NCBI GenBank assembly: GCA_964521295.1
Contig: CAZFRF010000001.1
Coordinates: 7,751 to 71,750, forward strand
Reading direction: 5' to 3'
Source of the DNA: an uncultured Gammaproteobacteria bacterium
GTDB taxonomy: Bacteria; Patescibacteriota; Microgenomatia; Levybacterales; UBA12049
DNA: 64,000 nt
Numbering within the stretch: position 1 is the first letter of the stretch; each line of letters begins with the position of its first letter. The position numbers and the translations under genes were made by a program. Positions 1-64,000 of the stretch are shown here, in pieces. The notes beneath the pieces were generated by a model. The model was not told the DNA's origin, did not search any database, and was given only the letters and a program-made list of their open reading frames with translations.

Positions 1-1022
1 TGGTCTCGTCTTTGTTGCAAAGCTAGGTCTGCAGTTTCACGGGTTGCATAAACCCCGCGAAGTTCAACAGGTAGAAGTTGAGCCATCGCTAGACCTAATC
101 TTGTGTCTAATTCTTCGAATTCTCTATGTTTAACTATGTATTGAATATCAGCATCATCAGTTCTAATTCCTTCTCCTACGGTTACACTGCAAACTCCTGT
201 TTTTCCGAGTAATCCCGCTTTCCAGCCTTCTAGGGTAGGTAGTTTATGATTTGATGGATCATTAATTTCATAGCCTCCTACAATTCCTACAGGAATAAAT
301 AATACGCCTTTTCTTCTAAATTTGCGAGAGATAGCATAGGCACTTGCTGTGGCATTTTCGGCAAGAAGTTGCATGCCAATTCTATTTCCATTGTCATCGC
401 GTCTTCCGCCTTGTACCGTTCCTTCAGGTAAAACCGAACGCATTTCAAAGCCTGCTTTAATCATTCCTGAAGCATGGGCTAAGAATTCTTCTTGGTTTCT
501 TTGTTCATCTCTTTTTTGCACGTCATTTGGTGTAGCTGTGTAGACAGGTATGACGCCATTTTCAACTAAGATAGGGAGAGTAGCGTCAAACATTATACTT
601 AATAATTTTCCTTGACCTTTCCTTTCAGGTGTAGTTGGATCTGTTGATCTACTTCCATTTTCTCCATTGACTCTCTTTAAGCTTTTGGCAAAAGGCATAA
701 AAGCGCCTCTTACTTCTTCTCCTAATGGCCTACCAATACTTGCAATTACTGCAGTTCTTTTGACAGCTGGAGCTAGTAGGAGTGCATCGGCCCAAGCAGT
801 ATGATTGCCATCTAAATCAATAGCGAAATTATCTTGTATAGCAGATGAGATCGTATATTCAAAATCTGGAGGAAAGGAATATGAGGTAACATCGAGAACT
901 CTTTGAGTTAACTTATTTACTACAAAACGGGGAAGTGCACCCCAATATCTTTCGGCTCCTTGTGGCTTTGGCTTGGTATCTTTAATCACTTGTCGTGATT
1001 GGGGCGTTTCAATTCTTTGCAT
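1..1022 (-). CDS. Acyltransferase of the PlsC/GPAT (lysophospholipid acyltransferase) family; partial, 3' end lies beyond the window start
   Basis: Hand translation of the minus strand from the ATG at 1022..1020 gives a continuous ORF running off the window edge. It carries the HxxxxD block (NHTAWAD) and a PEGT block (VLPEGTV) typical of glycerolipid acyltransferases. The ORF track does not list it because it lacks a stop inside the window. Confidence 0.55.
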   Translation of the reverse strand, partial: MQRIETPQSRQVIKDTKPKPQGAERYWGALPRFVVNKLTQRVLDVTSYSFPPDFEYTISSAIQDNFAIDLDGNHTAWADALLLAPAVKRTAVIASIGRPLGEEVRGAFMPFAKSLKRVNGENGSRSTDPTTPERKGQGKLLSIMFDATLPILVENGVIPVYTATPNDVQKRDEQRNQEEFLAHASGMIKAGFEMRSVLPEGTVQGGRRDDNGNRIGMQLLAENATASAYAISRKFRRKGVLFIPVGIVGGYEINDPSNHKLPTLEGWKAGLLGKTGVCSVTVGEGIRTDDADIQYIVKHREFEELDTRLGLAMAQLLPVELRGVYATRETADLALQQRRD

Positions 1023-1100
1023 AATCAGCAATTTTAGCAGATTTATGTATAAATTGCCTGTTGAAAAGACTTACTGCGATAGTATATATTTCTATGTGAA

Positions 1101-20694: not shown

Positions 20695-21816
20695 ATGTTA
20701 GTTACGATCTTAATCTTTCTTCTAATTCTTTCCATTTTAGTCTTAATTCATGAAGCTGGTCATTTTTTTACCGCTAAATTTTTTGGGATAAAAGTAGAAG
20801 AGTTTGGTTTTGGTTTGCCACCTCGAGTGTTCGGTATTAAAAGAGGTGAGACAATTTATTCTCTAAATCTTCTTCCAATTGGTGGATTTGTAAAATTATA
20901 TGGTGAAGATGATGCCGGGAGCGGATCGGTTAATTTAAAGCAAGCTTCAGAGTTACCTAAAAAAGATTTAGGTAGGGCTTTTTATGCTCGTCCTGTTTGG
21001 CAAAGAGCAGCGGTAGTGGTTGCCGGGGTATTTATGAATTTTGTTTTAGCGGTTGCGATAGTTACTATACTTTTTTCTGTAGTTGGTGTAACAAGCCCTG
21101 GTAAAGATGTGATTGTTGATAAGGTTTTGCAAAACTCGCCAGCTCAGGCTAGTGGCTTAAAAACAGGGGATATTATTAAAAAAATAAACGGGCAAATCAT
21201 CACCAGCCCTTCAGAATTAGTAGTAATTACAAAAAAACATTTAGGCGAAAAAATTACATTAGAAGTTAAAGATCAAAATTCTAAATCTAAAATTTTAACT
21301 GTTACGCCTCGTAAAAATTCGCCTAAAAATGAAGGGCCTATGGGAATTGCCATTTCTCAATCTGTAGTAACTAAAAAATATCCTTGGTACCAAGCCCCTT
21401 TTGTTGGAACTAAAGAAGTATTGAATCAATCATTTATGATAGCTCAGGGTCTTTTTACAGTTGTATTTCAATTAGTCACTAAAGCTAGTGTTCCTCAGGA
21501 TGTTGCTGGTCCAGTTGGAATAGCTCAGCTAACGGGAACAATGGTTAGTATTGGTCTTCCAGCTGTTTTATCTTTCATTGCGCTTTTGTCATTAAATTTA
21601 GCTATTGTGAATATCTTGCCAATACCAGCTTTAGACGGTGGAAGACTGCTATTTATCTTAGTAGAGGGAGTAACGGGTAAAAAAGTAAATGCAAAATATG
21701 AAAATGCAGCTCATACAATTGGAATGGCACTTTTACTTGGATTGATTGCGTTAATAACGATTCACGATTTAATTAGAGTGTTTTCCGGTCAACCTTTAAT
21801 TCCCCAAATAAAATAA
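20695..21816 (+). CDS. rseP: RIP site-2 zinc metalloprotease
   Basis: HEAGHFF zinc motif, a PDZ-like middle region and a C-terminal LDGG motif. Confidence 0.85.
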   Translation: MLVTILIFLLILSILVLIHEAGHFFTAKFFGIKVEEFGFGLPPRVFGIKRGETIYSLNLLPIGGFVKLYGEDDAGSGSVNLKQASELPKKDLGRAFYARPVWQRAAVVVAGVFMNFVLAVAIVTILFSVVGVTSPGKDVIVDKVLQNSPAQASGLKTGDIIKKINGQIITSPSELVVITKKHLGEKITLEVKDQNSKSKILTVTPRKNSPKNEGPMGIAISQSVVTKKYPWYQAPFVGTKEVLNQSFMIAQGLFTVVFQLVTKASVPQDVAGPVGIAQLTGTMVSIGLPAVLSFIALLSLNLAIVNILPIPALDGGRLLFILVEGVTGKKVNAKYENAAHTIGMALLLGLIALITIHDLIRVFSGQPLIPQIK

Positions 21817-22481
21817 TGCAAATTATTAAAGTTAAAAATCCTTTAAGTGGAGTAGATATTGCTAAGGAGATTTTATATAAAAATGTAAATACAAGAACAG
21901 TCTTATTTTTATCTGGAGGATCAACCCCTAAGCTTTTATATGAAACCTTAGCTCAAGAAAAGAAACTAAATTCGGGCGCAGTGGCCATGGTTGATGAGCG
22001 ATTTGGTGAAAGATTACACATAGATTCTAATGAATTAATGATTAAAAATACTAAGTTTTTAAATTATTTAGAATCTAAAAATATTAAATTTTTTCCAATC
22101 CTAAATAATGAATCATTAGAAAGTACGAGTCTAAATTATGATGAGACTTCAAGATTTTTGTTTAATCATTTTTCAAAAACCGTTGCGATTATGGGGATAG
22201 GTGAGGATGGACATACAGCTGGAATTCCGATTGGAACAGATAATAGTATTTCGGATTTGGTAACTTTTTATACAAATTTTCCTGGTAAATTAAATAAGAG
22301 AATTTCTTTAACCTATGCTGCATTAGAGCAAATAGACTTATTAATTGTTTTAGTTTTTGGAAAAGAAAAGCAGAAAATTTTAAATAAAATTTTTAAAGAG
22401 GGAAGCCTTGCTGAGATTCCAGCTAGAATATTTCAAAAACTTGATAATAAAACACTTTTAATTACAGATTTAAAGACCTAA
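21816..22481 (+). CDS. pgl: 6-phosphogluconolactonase
   Basis: NagB/RpiA/DevB-family pattern (VLFLSGGSTP...GIGEDGHTAG); zwf and gnd lie nearby. Confidence 0.7.
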   Translation: MQIIKVKNPLSGVDIAKEILYKNVNTRTVLFLSGGSTPKLLYETLAQEKKLNSGAVAMVDERFGERLHIDSNELMIKNTKFLNYLESKNIKFFPILNNESLESTSLNYDETSRFLFNHFSKTVAIMGIGEDGHTAGIPIGTDNSISDLVTFYTNFPGKLNKRISLTYAALEQIDLLIVLVFGKEKQKILNKIFKEGSLAEIPARIFQKLDNKTLLITDLKT

Positions 22482-23366
22482 TACAAAGGGAATAGTAGGT
22501 TTTTGAATTCTAACACCTAAGTTAACAATTGATTGCGCTGCAGCTAAGGCCTTATCTCTTGCTTCTTCACTCCAATAACTTTGTTTTCTACCCTTTGGTT
22601 TATCATCGGGTTTACTTTGATAAACTATATGCTCAGATCCTGTTTGGGGGGATAAAACACTAAATTCCTCTAAAACACCAAACCCAGATTGTTCTCTTCT
22701 ACCGATAAGATGATCTTTATTTGCAGTTATAAACCATGTTCCCAAATTTTCTGCTGGTAACGAGATGCTTAATCCGGTTAAGTTTGGAAAAGGTCTAAGA
22801 AAAGTTCCCCAGAATTGATCAATTATGGTTGGATATTGAAGACGATGGGCTGGGGTTGGAGTATGGGCTTCTTCTGGTTTTTGTTGCTCGGCTGGTGAAA
22901 GTAAATCTCCTAGATACAAATCAATCATTTCTAGAGAACTAGGGGAGTTTTTATAATCATGCGTTCTGTGTCTACTGCCTGCTTTATTCCACCAGCTTAG
23001 CTGAGGTTTATCTTGTACACCTATTGTAAAGCCACCTGTAGTCAGAGTTCTGTGGTGGGGGGTTTGCGATGCAGAAATATAAGTGTCTGGTCGAAAATGA
23101 ATTCGCCATCTAGAATTATTTGTATTTGCATTAATTGTCATTCCTGAAGGTAATTGTTCCGGGTCGACTCTTAGCCAAGCTGAGTTAATTCTTTCTTGGA
23201 CGGAAAGAAAATATTCCGTAATCTCCGCTGGGGTAAGACTTGTAGATCTCGGAGGAGTTACTGGGGTTTTGGGTTGGTCAATTTGTTGAGCTCTTGATTT
23301 TTCAGAATACGGAGCCAGTGGTTGTCCACCAGGAATACCTCTTTCTGGAAATATTGGTCTTGGCAT
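22470..23366 (-). CDS. Hypothetical protein, atypical composition (Pro/Arg/Gln/Ser-rich)
   Basis: Long ORF; a minus-strand TTGACA-17-TATATT promoter at 23374-23402 lies 7 nt from the ATG. Confidence 0.45.
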   Translation of the reverse strand: MPRPIFPERGIPGGQPLAPYSEKSRAQQIDQPKTPVTPPRSTSLTPAEITEYFLSVQERINSAWLRVDPEQLPSGMTINANTNNSRWRIHFRPDTYISASQTPHHRTLTTGGFTIGVQDKPQLSWWNKAGSRHRTHDYKNSPSSLEMIDLYLGDLLSPAEQQKPEEAHTPTPAHRLQYPTIIDQFWGTFLRPFPNLTGLSISLPAENLGTWFITANKDHLIGRREQSGFGVLEEFSVLSPQTGSEHIVYQSKPDDKPKGRKQSYWSEEARDKALAAAQSIVNLGVRIQKPTIPFVLGL

Positions 23367-23373
23367 TTTGCCA

Positions 23374-23402
23374 ATATACTATTGCAAAGATTTAATGTCA
23401 AT
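23374..23402 (-). promoter_or_regulatory. Consensus sigma70-type promoter (TTGACA-17-TATATT) driving a leaderless transcript of the 22470-23366 gene
   Basis: Hexamers read on the minus strand. Confidence 0.4.
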
Positions 23403-23600
23403 AATTATTTAGGAAGTCTTTTGCTTGCAGTATATGGACCTCTAACGATTTCAGGTCCAGTTGAGAGATAGTGTCTTTGGAGCGTGGTTTCAGTATTAGG
23501 TTTTCTTTCCCCAGGTGTAGCTGTAGTTACTCTGAGTCCATCTTGTTTTAAGGCAGCTACGAATAGGGATTCTGTTAATGATTAATCAATTCTTTTCATA

Positions 23601-24896
23601 TTAATCTAAAATTTTACTTAAGGCTACTAAATAGGAAGCTTCTTTTAAGTTAGTTTTTTTCTTTTTTGCTGTATTCCAAACATTATCAAAAGCTTTTTTC
23701 ATAATATTTTCTAGTCTTTGTAAGACTTTTTCTTTTTCATAAACTGTATATTTTAAATTTTGTTCCCATTCAATAAAGCTACCTGCAACCCCACCAGAAT
23801 TAGCTAAGACATCTGGAACAATGGTAGTTTTTTTGCGATCTAAAAAGTGAAATGCTTCTGGTGTGATTGGACCATTTGCCATTTCAATAATGACTTTGGC
23901 TTTAATGTTTTGCATATTTGATTCGTTAATTACGTTTTCTAGTGCTGCGGGTACTAAAATATCAACTGGAAGAGTGAGGAGTTCCTCATTTGTTATTAGT
24001 TGTCCACCTCGCGTATCACAAACTCCACCAGCACAGTAACAGCCATTTAAACTGCCTTTTTCGACCTTACATTCATAAACTAGGGGAATATCTAAAGGAA
24101 TAAAATTGCCTTGTTCATCTTTTTTGACAATGCCACCTTTGGAGTCTGAAACAGCGATAATTTTAAAGCCTGCATCTTGGGCAAGTTTTGCAAAGAAATA
24201 GCCAACATTGCCAAAACCCATAATTGCAATTGTGGTTTGTTGTGGTTTTAATTTTAATTTTTTAGTTAGTTCTTTAAGAATAGCAACGCCTCCAAAGCCG
24301 GTTGCCTCGGTTCTACCAGCAAGCCCATTTCTAGCTTTTCCAGTAAAAGTTGCGTATAAATCATTAGGATTTTTAACTAACTTTTTATTTATCTTTATAT
24401 ATTCATCTGTCATCCAATCAATAATTTTTGGGTTTGTATTTACATCAGGAGCGGGAATATCTTTACGTGGACCAATATTATCAGCTATGCTTTTTATAAA
24501 TTTTCTGGAAACTTCTTCTAATTGTTTTTGAGTTAGGGATTTTGGATCAACTGCAATTCCGCCTTTGCCACCACCGAAGGGAAGTCCTGCAATAGCGCAT
24601 TTTAGACTCATCCATAATGACAATGCCATCACTTCGTCTTTATTTACTTTTTGATGGAACCTAAGACCTCCTTTATAAGGTCCTAAGTTATTATTATGTT
24701 GACTTCTGTAGCCTTTAAAGGTGATTGTTTGCTTATCGATGGTTAAGGGGATTTTTACTTCTATAACTTTGTCTGGTTCGAGGAATTCTTGAAGCTTATC
24801 CTTAGGTAAATTGTACTTTTCACCTATGCTTAAAATTTCTTCTCTGGACTTTTCAAATGTACCTTGATTATCCATATACAGAATAAAAGTATACAC
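23601..24896 (-). CDS. gdhA: Glutamate dehydrogenase (Glu/Leu/Phe/Val dehydrogenase family)
   Basis: KGGLRFH...GLPFGGGKGG catalytic Lys box and a Rossmann GFGNVG motif. Confidence 0.9.
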   Translation of the reverse strand: MYTFILYMDNQGTFEKSREEILSIGEKYNLPKDKLQEFLEPDKVIEVKIPLTIDKQTITFKGYRSQHNNNLGPYKGGLRFHQKVNKDEVMALSLWMSLKCAIAGLPFGGGKGGIAVDPKSLTQKQLEEVSRKFIKSIADNIGPRKDIPAPDVNTNPKIIDWMTDEYIKINKKLVKNPNDLYATFTGKARNGLAGRTEATGFGGVAILKELTKKLKLKPQQTTIAIMGFGNVGYFFAKLAQDAGFKIIAVSDSKGGIVKKDEQGNFIPLDIPLVYECKVEKGSLNGCYCAGGVCDTRGGQLITNEELLTLPVDILVPAALENVINESNMQNIKAKVIIEMANGPITPEAFHFLDRKKTTIVPDVLANSGGVAGSFIEWEQNLKYTVYEKEKVLQRLENIMKKAFDNVWNTAKKKKTNLKEASYLVALSKILD

Positions 24897-24926
24897 CTAT
24901 TTTAGTGCTTTTCAAATGGTATTATT

Positions 24927-26387
24927 ATGTTTAGAATAGTAAAAATGCCAGGTCTTTTGTTAAATGAGGTAAAGTCTCCTTTCATAATGGTAATTTTTGG
25001 TGCAACAGGAGATTTGGCACAGCACAAGCTAATTCCATCCCTCTTTGCGCTTTTTACCCAGGATCTTTTGCCTAAAGATTTTTATATAATTGGTTTTTCG
25101 AGAAGAGAATTTACGAAAGATGAATTTCATAAATATTTTGAGCATTTACAACAAAAGACAGGCTGGAATGAGTTTAGCAAGCATCTTTTTTATCAATCTG
25201 GAAGTTTCGAAGAAGATAAAGGTTATTTAGATTTAAATAAAAAATTAGAAGAAATAGATGAAAAATTAGGCGCATGTGTTACTCGCTTTTTCTATCTTGC
25301 AACCCCACCTGATCACTACGAACAGATTCTAGAAAAATTAGTTTCAACAAAATTAAATGAAGGTTGTGGTCATGAAGGCAATAGTTGGACCAGAATAATT
25401 TTAGAAAAGCCTTTTGGTAAGGATTTAGAAACAGCTAGAAAATTGGATCAGAAATTATCAGACATTTTTGATGAAAAACAAATCTTTAGAGTTGATCATT
25501 ATCTTGGAAAAGAAACAGTGCAAAACATGCTTGCCTTTAGATTTGCTAATGGTATTTTTGAACCAGTTTGGAATAAAAATTTAATTGATCACGTTCAAAT
25601 TACATTTGCTGAAGAGGAGGGAGTAAAAAGACGAGGAAGATTTTTTGATGGAGTAGGTATACTTAGAGATATTGCTCAGAATCATTTAATGCAACTAATT
25701 GCTGCAGTTGCGATGGAGCAGCCCCGTAGTTTTACAAAAGAAGATTTAAGAGAGCAAAGGGCTAAAGTAATTTCGGCAATAACTTTAGATAAAGATAGTG
25801 AAGTTGTTAGAGCCCAGTACGAAGGTTACCTAGATGAAAAAGATGTTGACCCTAATTCTTTAACAGATACATTTGTCGCAATGAAAATGTTTGTGAATAC
25901 TCCTAGATTTGAAGGAGTACCTTTTTATGTAAGGGCAGGTAAGAAGATGCCTAAAGAAGTTGTGGAGATTTCTGTAGTATTTGTACAGACCTGTCACATT
26001 CTATTTAAAGAATATGGGTGTCCAGAAATAGGAAACGTTATTACATTTAGAATTCAACCAAATGAGGGAATCTCCTTAAGATTTATTGCTAAAACTCCAG
26101 GTGCGAAATTAGGACTTGAAAGTGTTGACATGAAATTTAATTACAAAGAAAGTTTTGGAACATCTGGAATCGAGGCATATGAGCGAATACTTTTGGATAT
26201 TTTTGCAGGAGATCAAATGCTTTTTAACAGAAGTGATGAACTTGATAGTTCATGGACTTTAATAACCCAAATACTGACTAAATGGAAAGCAGAAAAAGAA
26301 AAATTGGAAAGTTATCCTGTTTCAAGTTTTGGTCCTAAGAAAGCTTTTGATTTAATTGAAAAAGATGGGAGGAAGTGGTTGGTTTAG
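24927..26387 (+). CDS. zwf: Glucose-6-phosphate 1-dehydrogenase
   Basis: FGATGDLA NADP motif and RVDHYLGKE active-site motif. Confidence 0.9.
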   Translation: MFRIVKMPGLLLNEVKSPFIMVIFGATGDLAQHKLIPSLFALFTQDLLPKDFYIIGFSRREFTKDEFHKYFEHLQQKTGWNEFSKHLFYQSGSFEEDKGYLDLNKKLEEIDEKLGACVTRFFYLATPPDHYEQILEKLVSTKLNEGCGHEGNSWTRIILEKPFGKDLETARKLDQKLSDIFDEKQIFRVDHYLGKETVQNMLAFRFANGIFEPVWNKNLIDHVQITFAEEEGVKRRGRFFDGVGILRDIAQNHLMQLIAAVAMEQPRSFTKEDLREQRAKVISAITLDKDSEVVRAQYEGYLDEKDVDPNSLTDTFVAMKMFVNTPRFEGVPFYVRAGKKMPKEVVEISVVFVQTCHILFKEYGCPEIGNVITFRIQPNEGISLRFIAKTPGAKLGLESVDMKFNYKESFGTSGIEAYERILLDIFAGDQMLFNRSDELDSSWTLITQILTKWKAEKEKLESYPVSSFGPKKAFDLIEKDGRKWLV

Positions 26388-26388
26388 T

Positions 26389-27303
26389 ATGCAAATAGGT
26401 TTTATTGGTCTGGGAAAAATGGGCGGGAGAATGGTGCAGAAATTAATTGACGATAAACATGAGGTTTTTGCATGGAACAGAACTTTTGAAGTAAGTAAAG
26501 CTTTGCAGAAAGAAAATCCTAAATTAAATATCGTTGAAAATATAGAAGAATTAGCAGGCAAGCTAAAATCTCCGAAAGTAATTTGGTTAATGGTTCCAGC
26601 CGCAGCTGTTGATGAAATTTTAAAAGAAGTAACTAAATATATTGAAAAAGGAGATATCGTAATTGATGGTGGAAATTCAAATTATTTAGATACTGAAAAA
26701 AGATTTAATTTTTTCGAGAAAAAAGGAATTAAATTTTTAGGAGTTGGTACAAGTGGAGGAATTTTAGCAATTAATAATGGCTATCCTTTTATGGTTGGTG
26801 GAAATAAATCTGCTTATCTAAAAATCATTCCGCTTTTAGATACATTAGCAAAACCAAATGGTGGGCATGAATATTTTGGGACTGGTGGAGCAGGGCATTT
26901 TGTAAAAATGGTACACAATGGAATTGAATATGGAATCATGCAGTCTTTAGGTGAGGGATTTGAAGTTTTGGAAAAATCAAAATATAAATTTAATTTAGTA
27001 AATGTTGCTAAGCTCTGGCAAAAGGGGACACTTGTTTCGGGATTTTTATTAGATAGAGCAAAAGATGCATTGGTTAAAAATCCAACACTTGATGATATCA
27101 AAGGAGAAATTGATGCATCAGGTGAGGCCTTGTGGACAATTGAAGCAGCCAAAAAAGAAAAAGTAGCTGTAGAGATTATTGAAAGATCTTTAGATTATAG
27201 AGCAAGGTCTAAAACTGATAAAAAAATTCAGACAAGTTTTACAGCTAGGATGGTAGCAGCATTAAGAAGAGAATTTGGCGGACATAGTGTTAAAAAAGTT
27301 TGA
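26389..27303 (+). CDS. gnd: 6-phosphogluconate dehydrogenase, short (~300 aa) form
   Basis: IGLGKMGGRM Rossmann motif; the ATG at 26389 just after the zwf stop is preferred over the listed 26356 start. Confidence 0.82.
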   Translation: MQIGFIGLGKMGGRMVQKLIDDKHEVFAWNRTFEVSKALQKENPKLNIVENIEELAGKLKSPKVIWLMVPAAAVDEILKEVTKYIEKGDIVIDGGNSNYLDTEKRFNFFEKKGIKFLGVGTSGGILAINNGYPFMVGGNKSAYLKIIPLLDTLAKPNGGHEYFGTGGAGHFVKMVHNGIEYGIMQSLGEGFEVLEKSKYKFNLVNVAKLWQKGTLVSGFLLDRAKDALVKNPTLDDIKGEIDASGEALWTIEAAKKEKVAVEIIERSLDYRARSKTDKKIQTSFTARMVAALRREFGGHSVKKV

Positions 27304-32319: not shown

Positions 32320-32709
32320 ATGGATAAAAAAGTTTCCGTTTTAATCTTTGTTGAAAGTAGATACAAAGTTAATAGAAAAAGAATTAAACAAACTGTTGAA
32401 AAAGTAATTTCTAGAAATGAAGTTACGGGACCAGTTGAGGTTTCTGTTGCAATTGTTGGCGATCGTAAAATGCGTGAGCTCTCCAAAAAATATAAAGGAG
32501 AAGACAAGACTAGAAACATATTATCTTTTTCTCAATCTGAGGGGGATGTGATTGAAGCACCAAAAGATAAATTAAGACTTGGAGATATTGTACTTTCATA
32601 TCCAGTTGTAATACTTGATGCAGTCAGAGATGAAATGCTAGTTGATGATAAAGTAGATCAATTAGTTGAACATGGTTTGGAGCATTTACTAGGATTACAT
32701 CACGAGTAG
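32320..32709 (+). CDS. ybeY: rRNA maturation endoribonuclease YbeY
   Basis: C-terminal HGLEHLLGLHHE zinc-binding motif. Confidence 0.82.
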   Translation: MDKKVSVLIFVESRYKVNRKRIKQTVEKVISRNEVTGPVEVSVAIVGDRKMRELSKKYKGEDKTRNILSFSQSEGDVIEAPKDKLRLGDIVLSYPVVILDAVRDEMLVDDKVDQLVEHGLEHLLGLHHE

Positions 32710-50971: not shown

Positions 50972-52480
50972 ATGAAAAAAAGAAAGATTCCAGCGACAAT
51001 GGTAACGCAGCATCCTGATCATGCTTCTAAACCGTATTGGCATTATAGGGCATATATAACGACCGAATACGAATCAAAAGAGGCTTATTTGTCGTTTGCT
51101 GAGTTAAATGCAACTGAATACAAGTGGGATTGGGAAGGTAAATTAGTTGATGAATCTGTTGTTGAAAGGTTTTTTGGAGAGCATTTTGAGTACTTCTCAA
51201 AAAATCCATTAGGAGAAGAAAAATTCTTAACCTTTAGGCTTCCAAATCCAAGAGTCGAAACAGAATTTAGGCTTTTAAGAGCGTTTATTAATATGGCCAG
51301 TGCTGGTTCAGTTGCTAAGCATTTTGGATTTACTAAGCCACCAATTTTTGAAGTAATTTTGCCCTTAACAGAAACTGCTGAGGAGATGTTGTCTTTGCAA
51401 GAAGCATTTGCCCAGATTCATAGTTTAAAACATCCCTTATTTAGATTAGAAGGTTTTTTAACCAATTTAAGAGTTATACCGCTTTTTGAAGATGTAACTA
51501 CTATTATTAATTCAGATAAAATCTTAGAAAAATATTTAAAGATATATAAAAAAAGGTTTAAAAAACTCCCTCCATATATGAGGCCATATGTAGCAAGATC
51601 TGATCCGGCTTTAAACAGTGGGTTAATTCCAACAGTTTTAGCGATTAAGATTGCCTTATCTCGTTTTAAAAAGCTGGAGAAAAAATTAAAAATTCCACTT
51701 TATCCTGTTATAGGTGCTGGGAGTTTGCCTTTTAGAGGTGGGATAAATCCAGAAAGTGTTGTTGATTTTGCAAATGAATATAAAGGTATAAGAACTGTAA
51801 CTATTCAGAGTGCTTTTAGATATGATTACCCTTTGCCAAAAGTTAAGGCCGCAATTGAATATTTAGAAACTAATTTAGTAAAACAAAAAGCAATAAATAT
51901 TTCTGAAAAAGAAGAAAAAGAGTTGCTTGGTTTAATAAGTGAGGGAAGTAAGCTTTATAAAAATTTAATTTCTGAAATAGCTCCAATAGTTAATTTAGTT
52001 TCCCAATATATTCCTCAGCGAAGAGAGAGATTTCAACATATTGGTTTGTTTGGATATTCTAGAGGAGAAAAAGGTGTGAAGTTGCCTAGAGCAATCTCAT
52101 TTACTGGTTCAATGTATTCATTAGGCATACCTCCGGAACTATTAGCCAGCGGTAAGTTAATCGAATATGCAATCAAAACTAAGAAAATCAAAGTTTTGGA
52201 AAAATATTATGTAAATATGCAAAAAGATTTAATAAAGTCTGGAAAGTATTTGAATAAAGAAAATTTAGTAATTCTTTCTCATAAATCATTAGTATTTAGC
52301 GAGATTTTAGAAAGTGTAGACTTAATTGAAAAATATTTAGGTAAAAAATTAGGTCCAACTACAATTTCAGAAAAAAAACATTCTTTATTATCTAAGAAGC
52401 TGTTGGAAAATGTTAAAAATAAGGAGTTAGCTAAGAAATATCTAAAGCAAGCAGCTCGATTAAGAAGGAGTATGGGTTAA
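50972..52480 (+). CDS. Archaeal-type phosphoenolpyruvate carboxylase (PEPcase type 2)
   Basis: N-terminal KIPATMVTQHPDH motif characteristic of archaeal-type PEPC; ~500 aa. Confidence 0.78.
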   Translation: MKKRKIPATMVTQHPDHASKPYWHYRAYITTEYESKEAYLSFAELNATEYKWDWEGKLVDESVVERFFGEHFEYFSKNPLGEEKFLTFRLPNPRVETEFRLLRAFINMASAGSVAKHFGFTKPPIFEVILPLTETAEEMLSLQEAFAQIHSLKHPLFRLEGFLTNLRVIPLFEDVTTIINSDKILEKYLKIYKKRFKKLPPYMRPYVARSDPALNSGLIPTVLAIKIALSRFKKLEKKLKIPLYPVIGAGSLPFRGGINPESVVDFANEYKGIRTVTIQSAFRYDYPLPKVKAAIEYLETNLVKQKAINISEKEEKELLGLISEGSKLYKNLISEIAPIVNLVSQYIPQRRERFQHIGLFGYSRGEKGVKLPRAISFTGSMYSLGIPPELLASGKLIEYAIKTKKIKVLEKYYVNMQKDLIKSGKYLNKENLVILSHKSLVFSEILESVDLIEKYLGKKLGPTTISEKKHSLLSKKLLENVKNKELAKKYLKQAARLRRSMG

Positions 52481-53538: not shown

Positions 53539-53621
53539 GGATTAAGTATACCATTTAATTGCAAGTTTTAATTGACACTGAATTTCAAAAGGAGTAATCT
53601 CAGGTGAGAGGAGGTGAGATT

Positions 53622-53792
53622 ATGAAGCAGCAAGCAAGTAGTGGAGCCATTTATGGAACTGGAGTAATTGGTGCATTAATATATTTTTTAACTCATGCCC
53701 AAGGTTTTCAGGGAATGATTTTTGGTATTATCCAAGCATTTTTTTGGCCAGGAGTATTAGTATATAAAGCTTTAGAACTTTTAAAAATATAA
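53622..53792 (+). CDS. Small (56 aa) two-TM membrane protein
   Basis: SD GGAGG 7 nt upstream of the ATG at 53622; the listed start 53604 is a GTG inside the SD. Confidence 0.4.
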   Translation: MKQQASSGAIYGTGVIGALIYFLTHAQGFQGMIFGIIQAFFWPGVLVYKALELLKI

Positions 53793-53831
53793 AAGTTGAC
53801 AGAGTAAGCTATATATGTCTTACTAAATTAA

Positions 53832-59933: not shown

Positions 59934-61034
59934 ATGAATCTTTCAATTGGTATCGTAGGTCTTCCAAATGTAGGAAAAAGTACACTTTTTAATGCTCTTT
60001 TGAAAAAGCAGCAAGCTTTAGTTGCAAATTATCCGTTTGCAACAATTGAGCCAAATGTTGGTGTAGTTGCTGTTCCTGATGATAGGTTACTTAGTCTAGC
60101 AGAGATTACAAAGTCAGAAGAAAAAATGACAGATTTGCCTCCAATAAAACCAGCAACTGTAAATTTTGTAGACATTGCTGGACTAGTTAAAGGCGCTTCA
60201 GAAGGAGCAGGACTTGGTAATAAATTCTTAAGTCATATTAGAGAAGTGAGTGTAGTAGCTCATGTTGTTCGTGCATTTGAAGATGAAAATATTTTAAAAG
60301 AAGGCGCTGTAGATCCGAAGTCAGATTATGACACTATAAGAACAGAACTTCAAATTGCGGACTTACAAACTGTACAAAATGTATCTGAAAAAGCATTAAG
60401 GACAGATCCTGTGAAAAAAGCTGCAGTTGAAAAAATAAGACAAGTTTTAGATAGTGGCAATAATGCATCTACGACATCTTTAACAGAAGAAGAAGCTTTG
60501 TCTGTTAAAGAGTTTAATTTATTAACTTCCAAGCCTGAAATTGTCGTTTTAAATATTTCTGAAGCAGATTATAATCCGGAAAGTATTCAAAAAATTATTG
60601 GTACATATGCTGGTCTTTTAGAAGTAGAGGAGCACAGAGTAATTGTAATTTGTGCCAAAATTGAGGCAGAATTAGCAAGTTTATCCGAAGAGGAGCAAGT
60701 GGAATATCTTAAAGATTTAGGAATGAGCAAATCAGGCCTTGAGAGACTTATTCAAAAAGCTTATGAAGAGTTAGGTCTTATTTCATTTTTAACAAGTGGC
60801 GCTAAAGAAGTTAAAGCCTGGACAATTAAAAAAGGAATTACAGCCCAAATGGCTGCTGGAGAAATTCATACAGATTTTATTAAAAAGTTCATTAAAGCTG
60901 AAGTTGTGCATTTTGCAGATTTCGTTGGCGCCAATGGTTGGAAAGGCGCAAGGGAAGCGGGAAAGGCACTTTTAGAGGGAAGAGATTATATTATGCAAAA
61001 TGGAGATGTTGTTGAATTTAAAATAGGCACATAA
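59934..61034 (+). CDS. ychF: Ribosome-binding ATPase YchF (Obg family)
   Basis: [18 protein letters not shown]1 motif and a C-terminal TGS domain. Confidence 0.9.
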
Positions 61035-61527
61035 TTATTCTGTTATCTGTATCGGGATTTGATACCACTTTGAATCCAAATCTTTCATAAGCTCTTATTG
61101 CTGCTAAGTTATTTTTTGTTGTTTCAAGCCAGATTCCTTTATTAGGATTTTGAGTATATTCAAGTAAATTTTTATATTTATCAAAGGCTTTATCCATAAA
61201 GTGTTTTGATAAGCCTTTTCCTCTTGCTGGTTTATATATTCTAACTGCAAAAGTAACACCATATGAATCTTTATTAATTGGAAGTAAATATTTTTTATTT
61301 GGTAAATTTTTTCTTCCATACCAAAGAATACCTAAAAGGTTGTCTTTTACATCTGTTAAAACAAAAACTGTTCTATCTTTTTTTTGCCAAGAAGTAAAAT
61401 GTTCTATGCTTCTAAATCTCTCTAAGTCTTTGGTGGTTTCTTGAATAATTTCGTCTGTGTTGGTGTAGTTTATGAGTTGTTGAATTTGTTTTTTAGTGAT
61501 TCCTTCTTTAATGTAGACAGTTTCCAT
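61018..61527 (-). CDS. GNAT-family N-acetyltransferase
   Basis: Acetyl-CoA binding region RGKGLSKHFM and an AIRAYERFGF tail. Confidence 0.68.
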   Translation of the reverse strand: METVYIKEGITKKQIQQLINYTNTDEIIQETTKDLERFRSIEHFTSWQKKDRTVFVLTDVKDNLLGILWYGRKNLPNKKYLLPINKDSYGVTFAVRIYKPARGKGLSKHFMDKAFDKYKNLLEYTQNPNKGIWLETTKNNLAAIRAYERFGFKVVSNPDTDNRIIMCLF

Positions 61528-61549
61528 TGATAAATTATAACAATATTAA

Positions 61550-61578
61550 TTGACAAAGATAATATAGAAATGTAGAAT
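61550..61578 (+). promoter_or_regulatory. Promoter TTGACA-17-TgTAGAAT, 9 nt from the ATG
   Basis: Read directly from the sequence. Confidence 0.45.
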
Positions 61579-61587
61579 TGCGAGATT

Positions 61588-62865
61588 ATGTCAGAGCTTA
61601 TAGGAAAATATCGACCAGAACAACCAGTAATTACAGGTTTTGCACAAGTTTCTGGTTTTGGTGGAACAGAGGCAACAACTAATGGTTTATTAGATGGTAA
61701 AACTGCAATTGGAAAACACGATAACTTACAAATTCCTGGTGTTTCTGTTGCCGCACCAGCTCAATTTGATGCGTCAACTTTTCCATTTATAGCTGATTTA
61801 GATCCAAAATTTTTAAGAAGAACAAGTAGGTTTGGATTAATGACAATGGGTCTTATTGTTGAAGCAGGGTTGCATGCAAAAGTATTAGATGGGGATTATA
61901 AATTAATTCCACATTTTGATCCACAAGAGGCAAGTGTTGCTTTCGGAAGTGGTGTTGGTTCTTCTATCTATTTAGTTAGAAATGCAGATGTTTTAAGAGA
62001 TCCAGAAAATAAGGATAGAAAAATTGGTCCATTTGAAGCATTACATAGCTTGCCAGAGGGTCCACATTCAAATGCAGCCTTAAGAATAAATGCTATTGGC
62101 CCTTGTGATTATGAATCTGCAGCATGTGCAACTTCACTATATTCAATGGAACATGGTTTTAATAGATTAATGAGTGGTCAAGCGCAAATTGTTTTTGCGG
62201 GTGGGGCAGAATTAGTATTAGAAGAGCCAGTCTTAGCTCTTGGTGAATTTAAATCTTTCAAAGCTTTAACGCATAGCGAAGATCCAAATAATGCAAGTAT
62301 TCCTTTTTCAAAGCAAAGATCAGGATTTGTTATGGGTGAGGGTGGTGGAGTAGTGGTTATGGAAACTCTGGCATCAGCTCTAAAAAGAGAAGCTACAATT
62401 TATGCAGTGGTTGATTCAATAAGAAAAGGTTTAGGTGCAGGCGGAAGTTCAACTGATATGGCAACTGATAGAATTGCTAGTTTAATTAGTAAGGTTGCAA
62501 GGGGAAGAGAAATAGATGCTATATTTGCCCATGCTACAAGTACTCAGGTTGGGGACATTGCTGAAGCAACTGCTATTAGACAAGCATTGGGTAAAGACCA
62601 CCCGATAGCAGATGTTACTTCAGTTAAGTCAGGAGTTGGTCATGCTTTAGGTGGAGCTGGAATTCTTAGCGTTATTGCAGGTGTTAGAGCCATACATGAG
62701 GGAGTAATTCCTCCAACTAGAGTTGGTGAGGGCATTGATCCACAAATTGTTGATCAAGGAGTCAATGTTGTTACAGAGGCTAAGGTAAAACAAATAAATA
62801 CCGCTATTGTAGAAGCGTTTGGATTCCACGGACATAATGTTGTAGGCGCCTTAACTTCTTTATAA
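61588..62865 (+). CDS. Beta-ketoacyl-ACP synthase I/II-like condensing enzyme (thiolase fold)
   Basis: Active-site Cys box GPCDYESAACATS, PFSKQRSGFVMGEGGGVVVME, His motifs AHATSTQVGD and SVKSGVGHALGGAG, and a GFHGHN tail. Confidence 0.72.
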   Translation: MSELIGKYRPEQPVITGFAQVSGFGGTEATTNGLLDGKTAIGKHDNLQIPGVSVAAPAQFDASTFPFIADLDPKFLRRTSRFGLMTMGLIVEAGLHAKVLDGDYKLIPHFDPQEASVAFGSGVGSSIYLVRNADVLRDPENKDRKIGPFEALHSLPEGPHSNAALRINAIGPCDYESAACATSLYSMEHGFNRLMSGQAQIVFAGGAELVLEEPVLALGEFKSFKALTHSEDPNNASIPFSKQRSGFVMGEGGGVVVMETLASALKREATIYAVVDSIRKGLGAGGSSTDMATDRIASLISKVARGREIDAIFAHATSTQVGDIAEATAIRQALGKDHPIADVTSVKSGVGHALGGAGILSVIAGVRAIHEGVIPPTRVGEGIDPQIVDQGVNVVTEAKVKQINTAIVEAFGFHGHNVVGALTSL

Positions 62866-62884
62866 CTTTTGTTATACTTAGTTC

Positions 62885-63838
62885 ATGCCACAAGAATTGC
62901 CTCAAAGTTTAGATTTAAAGTTAGCGGCTGATCAAATTAGAATTCATCGAGAAATTGGAGAAGTAAAAAGATTTACAAATATGGTTTTTGTTCCTGGAAG
63001 AGATGAGCAGGTTGCATATAGTCCAGCAATGGAAATCTTAGTTAATAATCCAGTTCTTCTTAGATATTCATATGGTTTTAGAGCTCCCAGTATGTCTACA
63101 GCTTATCTTACTCCGACTCACACAAGAGAAACTGGACTTAGTAATGTTAGAGATTTTTTACATGATAATGGTTTTGTCGGAGAAAGAGCAATTCAAACAA
63201 GAGGAATTGTTGATTTAAATAATCCAGCAGAGGCACAAATCTTAGAAGTTGATAGAGATTCAAGTCAAACCGTAGTAGATGCAAATGTTTTATTTACTCG
63301 TGATCCTAGAACAATCCTTATTATTAAATCTTCAGATTGTCCAACTGGTAGTATTCACTTTAAAGATAATGTGGGAAGAGATGGAGTAGCTCTTGTTCAT
63401 GGGGGAGCACAATCAATTAATTTTGGTTTAGTCAGGCAAGGCATGCAAGCTTTGCAAAGTGAACTCGGTGTGGATTTGGATAGCGTTACGGTTTCTATTT
63501 TTCCTGGTATGAAAGATTACACTCTTTCTAAAATGTGGAAAGATAAAGATGGGATAATAAGGCCAAGATACGAAGGCTTGTATCCAATAAACGTTAATGG
63601 GTTTTTGGAACCAGCTAAAACAGATGATCCTTTAGAGAAAAGAAAAATAGATTTAGAAAGTGCCTTTATAATGCAGCTCTTACAAGCTGGTGTTAACATT
63701 AAAAATATCGAAACGTTTGCCGTTGATACTTATGAAGATGCAAAGAAGGGTAGAGCATTTTCACACAGACTTATGGTTGATGAAAATGGTAGACCTGGCG
63801 CAAATCTGATAGCAATTCAACTAAGGCAAGCTACTTAA
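62885..63838 (+). CDS. YfiH/PgeF-like (DUF152, Cu-oxidase_4) family protein
   Basis: SSDCPTG (approximating ADCxPV), ALVHGGAQS (approximating AHAGWRG), and C-terminal FSHRLMVDENGRPGANLIAIQL (approximating FSYRRD...GR..S.IWL). Confidence 0.45.
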   Translation: MPQELPQSLDLKLAADQIRIHREIGEVKRFTNMVFVPGRDEQVAYSPAMEILVNNPVLLRYSYGFRAPSMSTAYLTPTHTRETGLSNVRDFLHDNGFVGERAIQTRGIVDLNNPAEAQILEVDRDSSQTVVDANVLFTRDPRTILIIKSSDCPTGSIHFKDNVGRDGVALVHGGAQSINFGLVRQGMQALQSELGVDLDSVTVSIFPGMKDYTLSKMWKDKDGIIRPRYEGLYPINVNGFLEPAKTDDPLEKRKIDLESAFIMQLLQAGVNIKNIETFAVDTYEDAKKGRAFSHRLMVDENGRPGANLIAIQLRQAT

Positions 63839-63882: not shown

Positions 63883-64000
63883 TGAGAAATTACAATTTAA
63901 CTTTAGTTGTTAGTGGTTCATTAAAAGATGCTGACAGAAAAAAAGTTGTAGATTTAGTTAAAGAATATTTAAAGGGCGCAAAGTTTTCTAAATCAGATGA
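63883..64000 (+). CDS. rpsF: Possible 30S ribosomal protein S6, partial (runs off window end)
   Basis: Partial ORF MRNYNLTLVVSGSLKD..., resembling the S6 N-terminus (MRhYEivfmv); only 39 aa visible. Confidence 0.35.

Follow-up and report, generated by a model that had tools for sequence, protein, structure and literature searches.

A divergent FabF-like ketosynthase, kept by selection, in a Microgenomates-like genome: relatives, gene order and possible role

The enzymes closest to the one described here are the elongating beta-ketoacyl synthases of the FabF (KAS II) type, which belong to type II fatty-acid synthesis (FAS-II). In FabF, K65 and K69 are experimentally implicated in docking of the acyl carrier protein (ACP), and Asp265 links gating loop 2 to the GFGG loop (PMC7138838). 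Within the candidate phyla radiation (CPR, Patescibacteria), the closest described case is that of Nealsonbacteria, whose near-complete FAS-II sets are reported to be without ACP synthase and FabD (Probst et al. 2020, PMC7242380). CPR bacteria are thought to be host-dependent for their membrane lipids. The present analysis concerns a ketosynthase (KS) gene near the end of a stretch of 64,000 nt (contig CAZFRF010000001.1, positions 7,751 to 71,750), hereafter the window, from a Microgenomates-like lineage which keeps this condensing enzyme intact and under selection. The locus offers a concrete test of whether some CPR bacteria elongate or synthesise acyl chains. We lean, slightly, towards an active, carrier-dependent elongating KS, vertically inherited, which would be the condensing enzyme of a reduced FAS-like pathway with its partner genes elsewhere in the genome; KS activity, ACP dependence and a role in acyl-chain elongation are what we infer from the data below.

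61588..62865, forward strand: KS, a divergent beta-ketoacyl synthase of the Cys-His-His class, predicted to be elongating, 425 aa (Pfam, residue alignment, AlphaFold2 fold)
Catalytic and conserved codons of KS: Cys180 62125-62127, His315 62530-62532, Lys347 62626-62628, His352 62641-62643, Phe413 62824-62826
Atypical codons of KS: Gly283 (equivalent of Asp265) 62434-62436, His414 (equivalent of Gly401) 62827-62829

Family, fold and relatives of the ketosynthase

Both Pfam domains, ketoacyl-synt (PF00109, E 9e-20, 71.7 bits) and Ketoacyl-synt_C (PF02801, E 1e-19, 71.2 bits), are above the gathering cut-off of 20.8 bits, and the closest solved structures by sequence are FabF enzymes (best 1J3N, E 1e-42). 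Cys180, His315 and His352 align with the catalytic Cys163/His303/His340 of FabF (E. coli numbering, here and below), while Lys347, Thr317/Thr319 and Phe413 align with Lys335, Thr305/Thr307 and Phe400. A preliminary description of this DNA had read a full Cys-His-His triad in the 425-aa frame and had named Cys or His residues lying off the catalytic positions as one observation that would overturn it; the alignment to solved FabF enzymes places these residues at the catalytic positions. The AlphaFold2 model, built on 42 sequences, has a local confidence (pLDDT) of 92.7 and a predicted template modelling (TM) score (pTM) of 0.94. Its best Foldseek matches are FabF/KASII (TM 0.88-0.92, E 1e-37), and it superposes on FabF, KasA, FabB and mitochondrial KAS with TM values of 0.84-0.92, i.e., over the full-length KAS fold. 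The gene is intact, with a FabF-like fold and the catalytic residues kept.

On sequence criteria, this KS departs from canonical FabF and is not an ordinary FabF: it scores 226.4 bits against the fabF equivalog model of NCBIfam (TIGR03150) and does not reach the curated cut-off of 493.75. Two other assignments were tried and rejected: (i) KAS III (FabH), since the triad is of the His-His type and not Cys-His-Asn, and the KAS III models score far below fabF; (ii) KS-alpha/chain length factor (CLF) of a type II polyketide synthase (PKS), since the window has a single KS match and the PKS models score far below fabF.

Among 5.8 billion proteins are found an identical sequence (on record from a 935,984-bp NCBI contig), one ortholog with 79% identity (P0002, contig L003) and then sequences with at most 39% identity. 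A profile search of 1.84 billion representatives adds at least 22 further stand-alone KS (441-518 aa, 380-586 bits). These, together with P0003-P0008, are called clade X here; P0254, P0263 and P0334 are among its members, which are 41-73% identical among themselves. The split between window KS, P0002 and clade X on one side and the canonical FabF set on the other has 100/100 bootstraps, and clade X without the pair formed by window KS and P0002 has 86/100, in trees that are neighbour-joining alone and in which the window branch is long, so that long-branch effects are possible. At 19 diagnostic columns, the window KS agrees with clade X 8 times, with FabF 4 times and with neither 7 times. It also has the 2-aa deletion of clade X near G278 and the motifs 'DAIFAHAT' and 'PE'. 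Judging from these sequence features, the window KS is a fast-diverged member of a distinct and mostly uncharacterised clade, associated with Patescibacteria-like groundwater genomes.

The KS was aligned with 30 clade-X sequences and 24 canonical KS, i.e., 54 comparison sequences; the E. coli FabF sequence in this alignment was confirmed through the positions of its C163, H303, K335, H340 and F400. Of the 41 columns with a conservation of 85% or more in both clade X and canonical KS, 39 are retained, including C163, F202, H303, T305, T307, D311, E314, K335, H340, G399, F400 and G402. Basic residues are kept at K65, R68, K69, R127, K128 and R206, i.e., also at the two docking positions mentioned above.

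Several clade-X KS genes stand beside FAS-type genes. L004 (1-11380) carries a fused biotin carboxylase/carboxyltransferase acetyl-CoA carboxylase (ACC, 1071 aa), FabH, a 550-aa ketoreductase-dehydratase (KR-DH) fusion and, directly upstream of the KS, FabD. L005 (5009-13034) carries an Sfp-like phosphopantetheinyl transferase (PPTase), an ApbA_C-PlsC fusion (611 aa), a 104-aa ACP, FabD, the KS and a KR-DH fusion. FabD is followed by the KS in L007 (6650-9044) and L008; the KS adjoins a short-chain dehydrogenase/reductase (SDR) in L010 and L093, and FabH in L012. The KR (adh_short)-dehydratase fusions of the groundwater contigs are 547-550 aa long. No enoyl reductase is seen in the groundwater loci L004, L005 and L007, and the taxonomic tie of these three contigs to CPR comes from a single protein, the archaeal-type phosphoenolpyruvate carboxylase (PEPC) of L004, which is 55% identical to that of the window.

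By predicted gene content, these groundwater loci form a near-complete ACP-dependent FAS-II-like set, at odds with the published lack of FabD and ACP synthase in CPR; set against the published CPR surveys, loci with FabD and PPTase are of interest in themselves. A literature search for FabF, FASII or ketoacyl synthase in CPR or Patescibacteria found no paper. Since sister KS genes stand beside FabD, ACP, PPTase, FabH, KR-DH and ACC, a lineage-specific FAS-like system is the default context of the window KS. Beside the KS of the window and of L003, and also near the clade-X KS of L011, FAS-like partners (FabD, ACP, KR-DH) are absent. The view that a KS is an oddity in a lineage without FAS does not survive this comparison: the gene is the positional ortholog of a clade whose other members, on related groundwater contigs, adjoin FAS-type genes.

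Gene order, selection and control regions

The host is supported as a CPR bacterium (Microgenomates/Levybacteria-like), in line with the lineage first proposed. Its taxonomy was taken from the best named matches of the cysteinyl-tRNA synthetase of the window, which are Candidatus Levybacteria/Levyibacteriota and 'Patescibacteria group' at about 70% identity. The gene content of the window is CPR-typical (split transketolase, ThyX, serine hydroxymethyltransferase, archaeal-type PEPC, few biosynthetic genes). Around the KS are the following features:

59934..61034, forward strand: ychF (YchF GTPase; Pfam MMR_HSR1 and YchF-GTPase_C), the synteny anchor
61018..61527, reverse strand: GNAT-family acetyltransferase, 169 aa, divergent from KS (Pfam Acetyltransf_1, E 1.6e-8)
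61528..61587, no strand assigned: divergent intergenic region with the predicted KS promoter, -35 TTGACA 61550-61555, -10 TAGAAT 61573-61578
62851..62884, forward strand: 3' end of KS and 19-nt spacer, with the conserved TTTGTTATACTT, an extended -10-like motif (TGnTATACT), 6 nt before the next ATG
62885..63838, forward strand: very divergent protein of predicted DUF152/YfiH-PgeF-YlmD fold, 317 aa (Pfam Cu-oxidase_4, AlphaFold2/Foldseek)
63883..64000, forward strand: 5' part of rpsF (ribosomal protein S6), truncated where the window ends (N-terminal sequence; gene table of L003)

The gene orders in the relatives are:

L003: as in the window, ychF, GNAT (reverse), KS, PgeF-like, rpsF-ssb-rpsR
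L011: ychF, clade-X KS, amidase (reverse), ssb-rpsR, CtpB, HtrA
L095: ychF, KS, second clade-X KS
L094: clade-X KS, 129-aa ORF, DUF152 protein (38% identical to that of the window, E 1e-60)
L091 and L092: ychF followed directly by the PgeF-like gene, no KS; in L091 a GNAT gene (44% identical) then stands tail-to-tail

The YchF of the window is 93% identical to that of L003 and 73-74% identical to those of L011 and L091, and at the position of rpsF the relatives have the order rpsF-ssb-rpsR. Since a KS also stands directly downstream of ychF in L011 and L095, the gene was inherited in place and not inserted. A lineage-specific insertion, the candidate drawn from L091 and L092 without KS, is overturned by L011 and L095 (ychF then KS) and by L094 (KS, then PgeF-like). 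The simplest reading is that the ancestor had the order ychF-KS-PgeF-like-GNAT ... rpsF-ssb-rpsR and that genes were later lost differentially and rearranged locally. The GC content at third codon positions (GC3) of KS, 0.155 (z = -1.8), is within the host range and agrees with inheritance in place.

Some particularities of these loci may be mentioned. L095 (3-2961) has two clade-X KS in tandem directly downstream of ychF, the second being cut by the contig end with its active-site Cys kept; this may be a duplication or a heterodimer pair. In the window, ychF and GNAT converge and overlap by 17 nt (61018..61034), while the GNAT gene of L091 shares 4 nt with the 3' end of the PgeF-like gene; these different overlap partners indicate that a local rearrangement moved GNAT. 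L011 (CAZUZF010000007.1) was obtained by a scan of genome contigs with an 8-sequence KS alignment, otherwise dominated by actinomycete and Firmicute FabF. It is titled 'uncultured Gammaproteobacteria bacterium', and L012, L016 and L021, which carry clade-X KS, are similarly labelled. The YchF of L011 is 74% identical to that of the window and L011 shares the ychF ... ssb-rpsR-CtpB-HtrA synteny with L091, thus its Gammaproteobacteria label is probably wrong.

The ratio of non-synonymous to synonymous substitution rates (dN/dS, Nei-Gojobori, window vs. L003) is 0.10 for KS, compared with values of 0.06 (YchF), 0.07 (GNAT), 0.11 (S8 protease), 0.13 (GSDH) and 0.22 (PgeF-like gene), with dS near saturation (1.0-1.4). 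By this comparison, KS is kept by purifying selection and is clearly not decaying.

The predicted KS promoter, TTGACA-17-TAGAAT (61550..61578), agrees with the consensus in 11 of 12 positions, and its -10 element ends 9 nt before the ATG. Such matches are not enriched in this AT-rich DNA: 18 are found at the scan threshold for 16.9 expected from shuffles. The preliminary description was right to give KS its own promoter; the support for it is the identity of the 60-nt spacer 61528..61587 to that of L003 (57/60 nt, i.e., 95%) and not the motif match. Flanking third codon positions are 53-66% identical. Conservation well above that of third codon positions speaks well for constraint on this control region, which holds the predicted sigma70-like promoter of KS and is common to KS and the divergent GNAT gene.

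Downstream of KS, the 12-mer TTTGTTATACTT is the same in L003, while the rest of the 19-nt spacer is 68% identical. No terminator is present between KS and the PgeF-like gene in the spacer examined, and co-transcription of the two is possible. The first description had found it probable: the 19-nt gap stands, and the conserved extended -10-like motif within it means that co-transcription is not required. The -10-like hexamers end 9 nt (KS, 61573..61590) and 6 nt (PgeF-like gene, 62870..62887) before the ATG, with no clear Shine-Dalgarno sequence; if both predicted promoters are real, the two transcripts would be leaderless or nearly so.

The assignment of the downstream gene to the DUF152/PgeF-like proteins is confirmed by Pfam and by the predicted fold. 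Cu-oxidase_4 (DUF152, PF02578) is matched with E 3.6e-12 and 46.6 bits (cut-off 22.9 bits) over residues 126-304 alone; the 125-aa N-terminal part is unmatched by Pfam and poorly modelled. The PgeF equivalog TIGR00726 gives 30.5 bits and its cut-off of 141.15 is not reached. Only 4 relatives are found among 5.8e9 proteins, plus the homolog of L094, and PDB sequence searches, both single-sequence and profile, give no match. The AlphaFold2 model is modest (pLDDT 63, pTM 0.71); its top 12 Foldseek matches in the PDB are all DUF152 proteins (YfiH, YlmD, PgeF, CC_0490; E 5.6e-9 to 3.8e-5). The motifs 'DCP' (Cys152) and 'HGG' (His172) are invariant in the 4 homologs. The metal/catalytic triad of YfiH is His-Cys-His (H71/C107/H124); the first metal (Zn)-binding His was not located in the PgeF-like protein, the region being outside the Pfam profile and poorly modelled.

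Possible role of the ketosynthase and competing explanations

If the enzyme is an active elongating KS, an acyl group would be loaded on Cys180 and a malonyl thioester on an acidic carrier protein would dock on the retained Lys/Arg patch. His315 and His352, with Thr317, Thr319, Lys347 and Phe413, would then decarboxylate the malonyl thioester, and the outcome would be a two-carbon chain extension. KS would in this manner carry out condensation in a reduced FAS-II-like pathway specific to this lineage, with ACP, FabD, PPTase and KR-DH encoded more than 60 kb away, if present at all.

Several observations weigh against such a role. CPR genomes surveyed so far are without complete fatty-acid synthesis (PMC7242380; PMC7143001). 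Pfam applied to the approximately 64 ORFs of the window, and phmmer against every six-frame ORF from 40 aa upwards (queries: CPR-type FabD, ACP, ACP synthase, FabH and KR-DH fusion, and E. coli AcpP), found none of ACP, FabD, FabG, FabZ, FabI, FabH, ACC or PPTase in the 64 kb, i.e., upstream of KS, and none is seen in about 3 kb downstream, as judged from L003; the statement of the preliminary description that no ACP, FabD/G/Z/I, ACC or PKS partner accompanies KS is borne out at this scale. A weak phmmer match to ACP (E 0.017) in the ORF 32320..32709 was rejected, the ORF being YbeY. The branch of the KS itself is long, with 33-39% identity to clade X and 27-35% to FabF. Asp265, an Asp in 53 of the 54 comparison sequences, is replaced by Gly283 in KS and P0002; in the same two proteins the GFGG loop reads GFHG (Gly401 to His414), and Glu349 is replaced by Ser in KS. 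In the FabF variants D265A and D265N, 63-73% of the reactivity towards a C3 probe remains and that towards a C8 probe is lost (1-2%) (PMC7138838).

The conserved gating elements of elongating KS (Mindrebo 2020), GFGG in loop 1 and Asp265 in loop 2, are thus both altered. The acyl pocket is changed as well (F133 to Glu, V134 to Ala, M269 to Ser). Since FabF D265A/N selectively lose the reaction with the longer probe, the natural Gly283 points to altered gating: by analogy, loss of Asp265 together with the GFHG gate suggests altered substrate gating, possibly with a preference for shorter acyl substrates. A non-canonical role had been suggested at the outset. The protein does depart from canonical FabF, being far below the fabF cut-off and altered in its gating residues; for its context, a FAS-like system is the default.

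The same features can be taken in favour of an orphan enzyme, the rest of the FAS-like set having been lost and the retained KS having received a new job. This might be one-cycle extension of scavenged host acyl chains, formation of a short beta-keto product, or mainly decarboxylation of malonyl thioesters. We hold it to be rather unlikely. In its favour are the lack of partners in the window, the long branch, the change of both gating elements and of the pocket at F133 and M269, the probe selectivity of the FabF Asp265 variants and lipid scavenging as the general picture of CPR (PMC7242380). However, any Cys-His-His reaction needs a malonyl thioester donor and, as the conserved basic residues suggest, a carrier protein; since it still has the nucleophilic Cys, the enzyme is no pure CLF/KSQ-type decarboxylase; P0003-P0005, which have GFHG as well, sit in FAS-like clusters; and the evolutionary rate vs. 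L003 is ordinary. A more precise form, to which we give still less credit, is that KS outlived its pathway and was re-tuned (Asp265 to Gly, GFHG, polar pocket floor) for scavenged or short acyl groups, i.e., for a one-enzyme tailoring of lipids in an organism that would otherwise take its lipids from others. The companion implication of this reading is that the sister clade would stand for a complete ACP-dependent FAS-II, not recognised before, in some CPR bacteria, which would run counter to the view that fatty acids are made by no CPR bacterium.

It is improbable that KS forms a functional module with the PgeF-like gene (and perhaps GNAT), e.g., for modification of the envelope or of a small molecule. 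The window, L003 and the deep relative L094 all have the order KS, then PgeF-like gene, no terminator separates the two, GNAT and KS share the 95%-conserved divergent control region, and other clade-X KS have peptidoglycan-related neighbours (Amidase_2 in L011, Polysacc_deac_1 in L004 and L007). Yet L011 and L095 have the KS without the PgeF-like gene, L091 and L092 have the latter without the KS (with GNAT seen in L091), the genomes are all related (YchF 69-77% identical), so that shared order can be ancestry alone, the 19-nt spacer has its own conserved -10-like element, and no known chemistry connects KS with DUF152 enzymes. Since each gene is also found without the other, the pairing fits an inherited gene order and is not a proven coupling; in terms of synteny, the PgeF-like and GNAT genes are inherited neighbours of KS and not demonstrated partners. 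What was presented as an unusual pairing is an old order, which recurs in L094. An ordinary fabF, either recently acquired by horizontal gene transfer or decaying as a remnant, is very improbable and largely refuted. The CPR host would allow it, as would the identity to some canonical FabF (35%), near that to clade X (33-39%). Against it stand the GC3 within the host range, the same chromosomal position filled in L011 and L095, the grouping with clade X in all bootstraps, the low dN/dS with a frame intact in two genomes and a conserved promoter, and a fabF equivalog score of less than half of the cut-off.

The active, carrier-dependent elongating KS with partners elsewhere keeps our slight preference. 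For KS enzymology, the window KS is a natural 'gating-loop mutant', without Asp265 and with GFHG. Taken alone, the window is of modest reach: it shows a divergent representative of an enzyme family that is very well known, with its partners out of view.

Other contents of the window and comparison with known systems

At the far edge of the window, an ORF first described as a partial PlsC-like acyltransferase is not part of the system:

3..1070, reverse strand: edge ORF, no family support

It has no match to PF01553 or to any other Pfam, NCBIfam or PDB entry even at E<=10, is without similarity to the PlsC fusion of L005, and carries an HX4D-like string alone (NHTAWAD). The segments 21816..27303 and 50972..52480 encode a complete oxidative pentose-phosphate branch (6-phosphogluconolactonase, glucose-6-phosphate dehydrogenase and 6-phosphogluconate dehydrogenase), i.e., sources of NADPH, together with glutamate dehydrogenase and the archaeal-type PEPC (PEPcase_2). 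Such a branch is notable for so small a genome and could provide reducing power for acyl-chain synthesis. Between 58223 and 59902 stand two ORFs of 318 and 222 aa, without Pfam or NCBIfam match. They do not align with L003, where this spot is taken by a 550-aa LysM protein; it is a variable region between otherwise syntenic genomes. The 293-nt intergenic region 53539..53831, which precedes the S8 subtilase gene, has 89% identity to that of L003, for 58-60% at flanking third codon positions; it may be a conserved non-coding element, perhaps a leader or a non-coding RNA, and has no Rfam match at the gathering threshold. The tRNA and Rfam searches of the window gave no match. The GC skew is positive in 31 of 32 bins of 2 kb (range -0.02 to +0.29), regardless of gene strand. 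One-directional skew is reported for some Microgenomates genomes (PMC7143001), and here it may simply reflect a single replichore.

The comparison with known systems leads to the following picture. As with the partial FAS-II of Nealsonbacteria (PMC7242380), FAS-II homologs are found in a CPR lineage despite the general lack of lipid synthesis; unlike in Nealsonbacteria, the clade-X loci L004, L005 and L007 carry FabD, and L005 also ACP and PPTase, while the window shows KS alone. The PgeF-like protein resembles YfiH/PgeF/YlmD by its predicted fold, which matches 1T8H, 6DZD, 6T1B, 7FBG and 1RW0, and by the DCP and HGG motifs; it differs from them by the extra 125-aa N-terminal region, by the lack of a PDB sequence match and by a PgeF score below the cut-off. 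With clade X, the window KS has in common the loss of Glu349, the position downstream of ychF (L011, L095) and the GFHG loop of P0003-P0005. It differs from clade X in being without the N-terminal extension of 20-35 aa and the insertion after residue 122, in having lost the Asp265 that 29 of 30 clade members keep, and in having no adjacent FabD, ACP or KR-DH. Compared with FabF/KAS II (4LS8, 1J3N, E. coli FabF), it is only 27-35% identical, has lost the Asp residues of 'PWDxxRDGF' and is outside a fab operon, with no acpP, fabD or fabG nearby. Like FabF, it is a stand-alone protein of about 425 aa with the two-domain thiolase fold over its full length, and it keeps the Cys-His-His-Lys set, Thr305/Thr307, the gate residue Phe400 and the basic positions of ACP docking.

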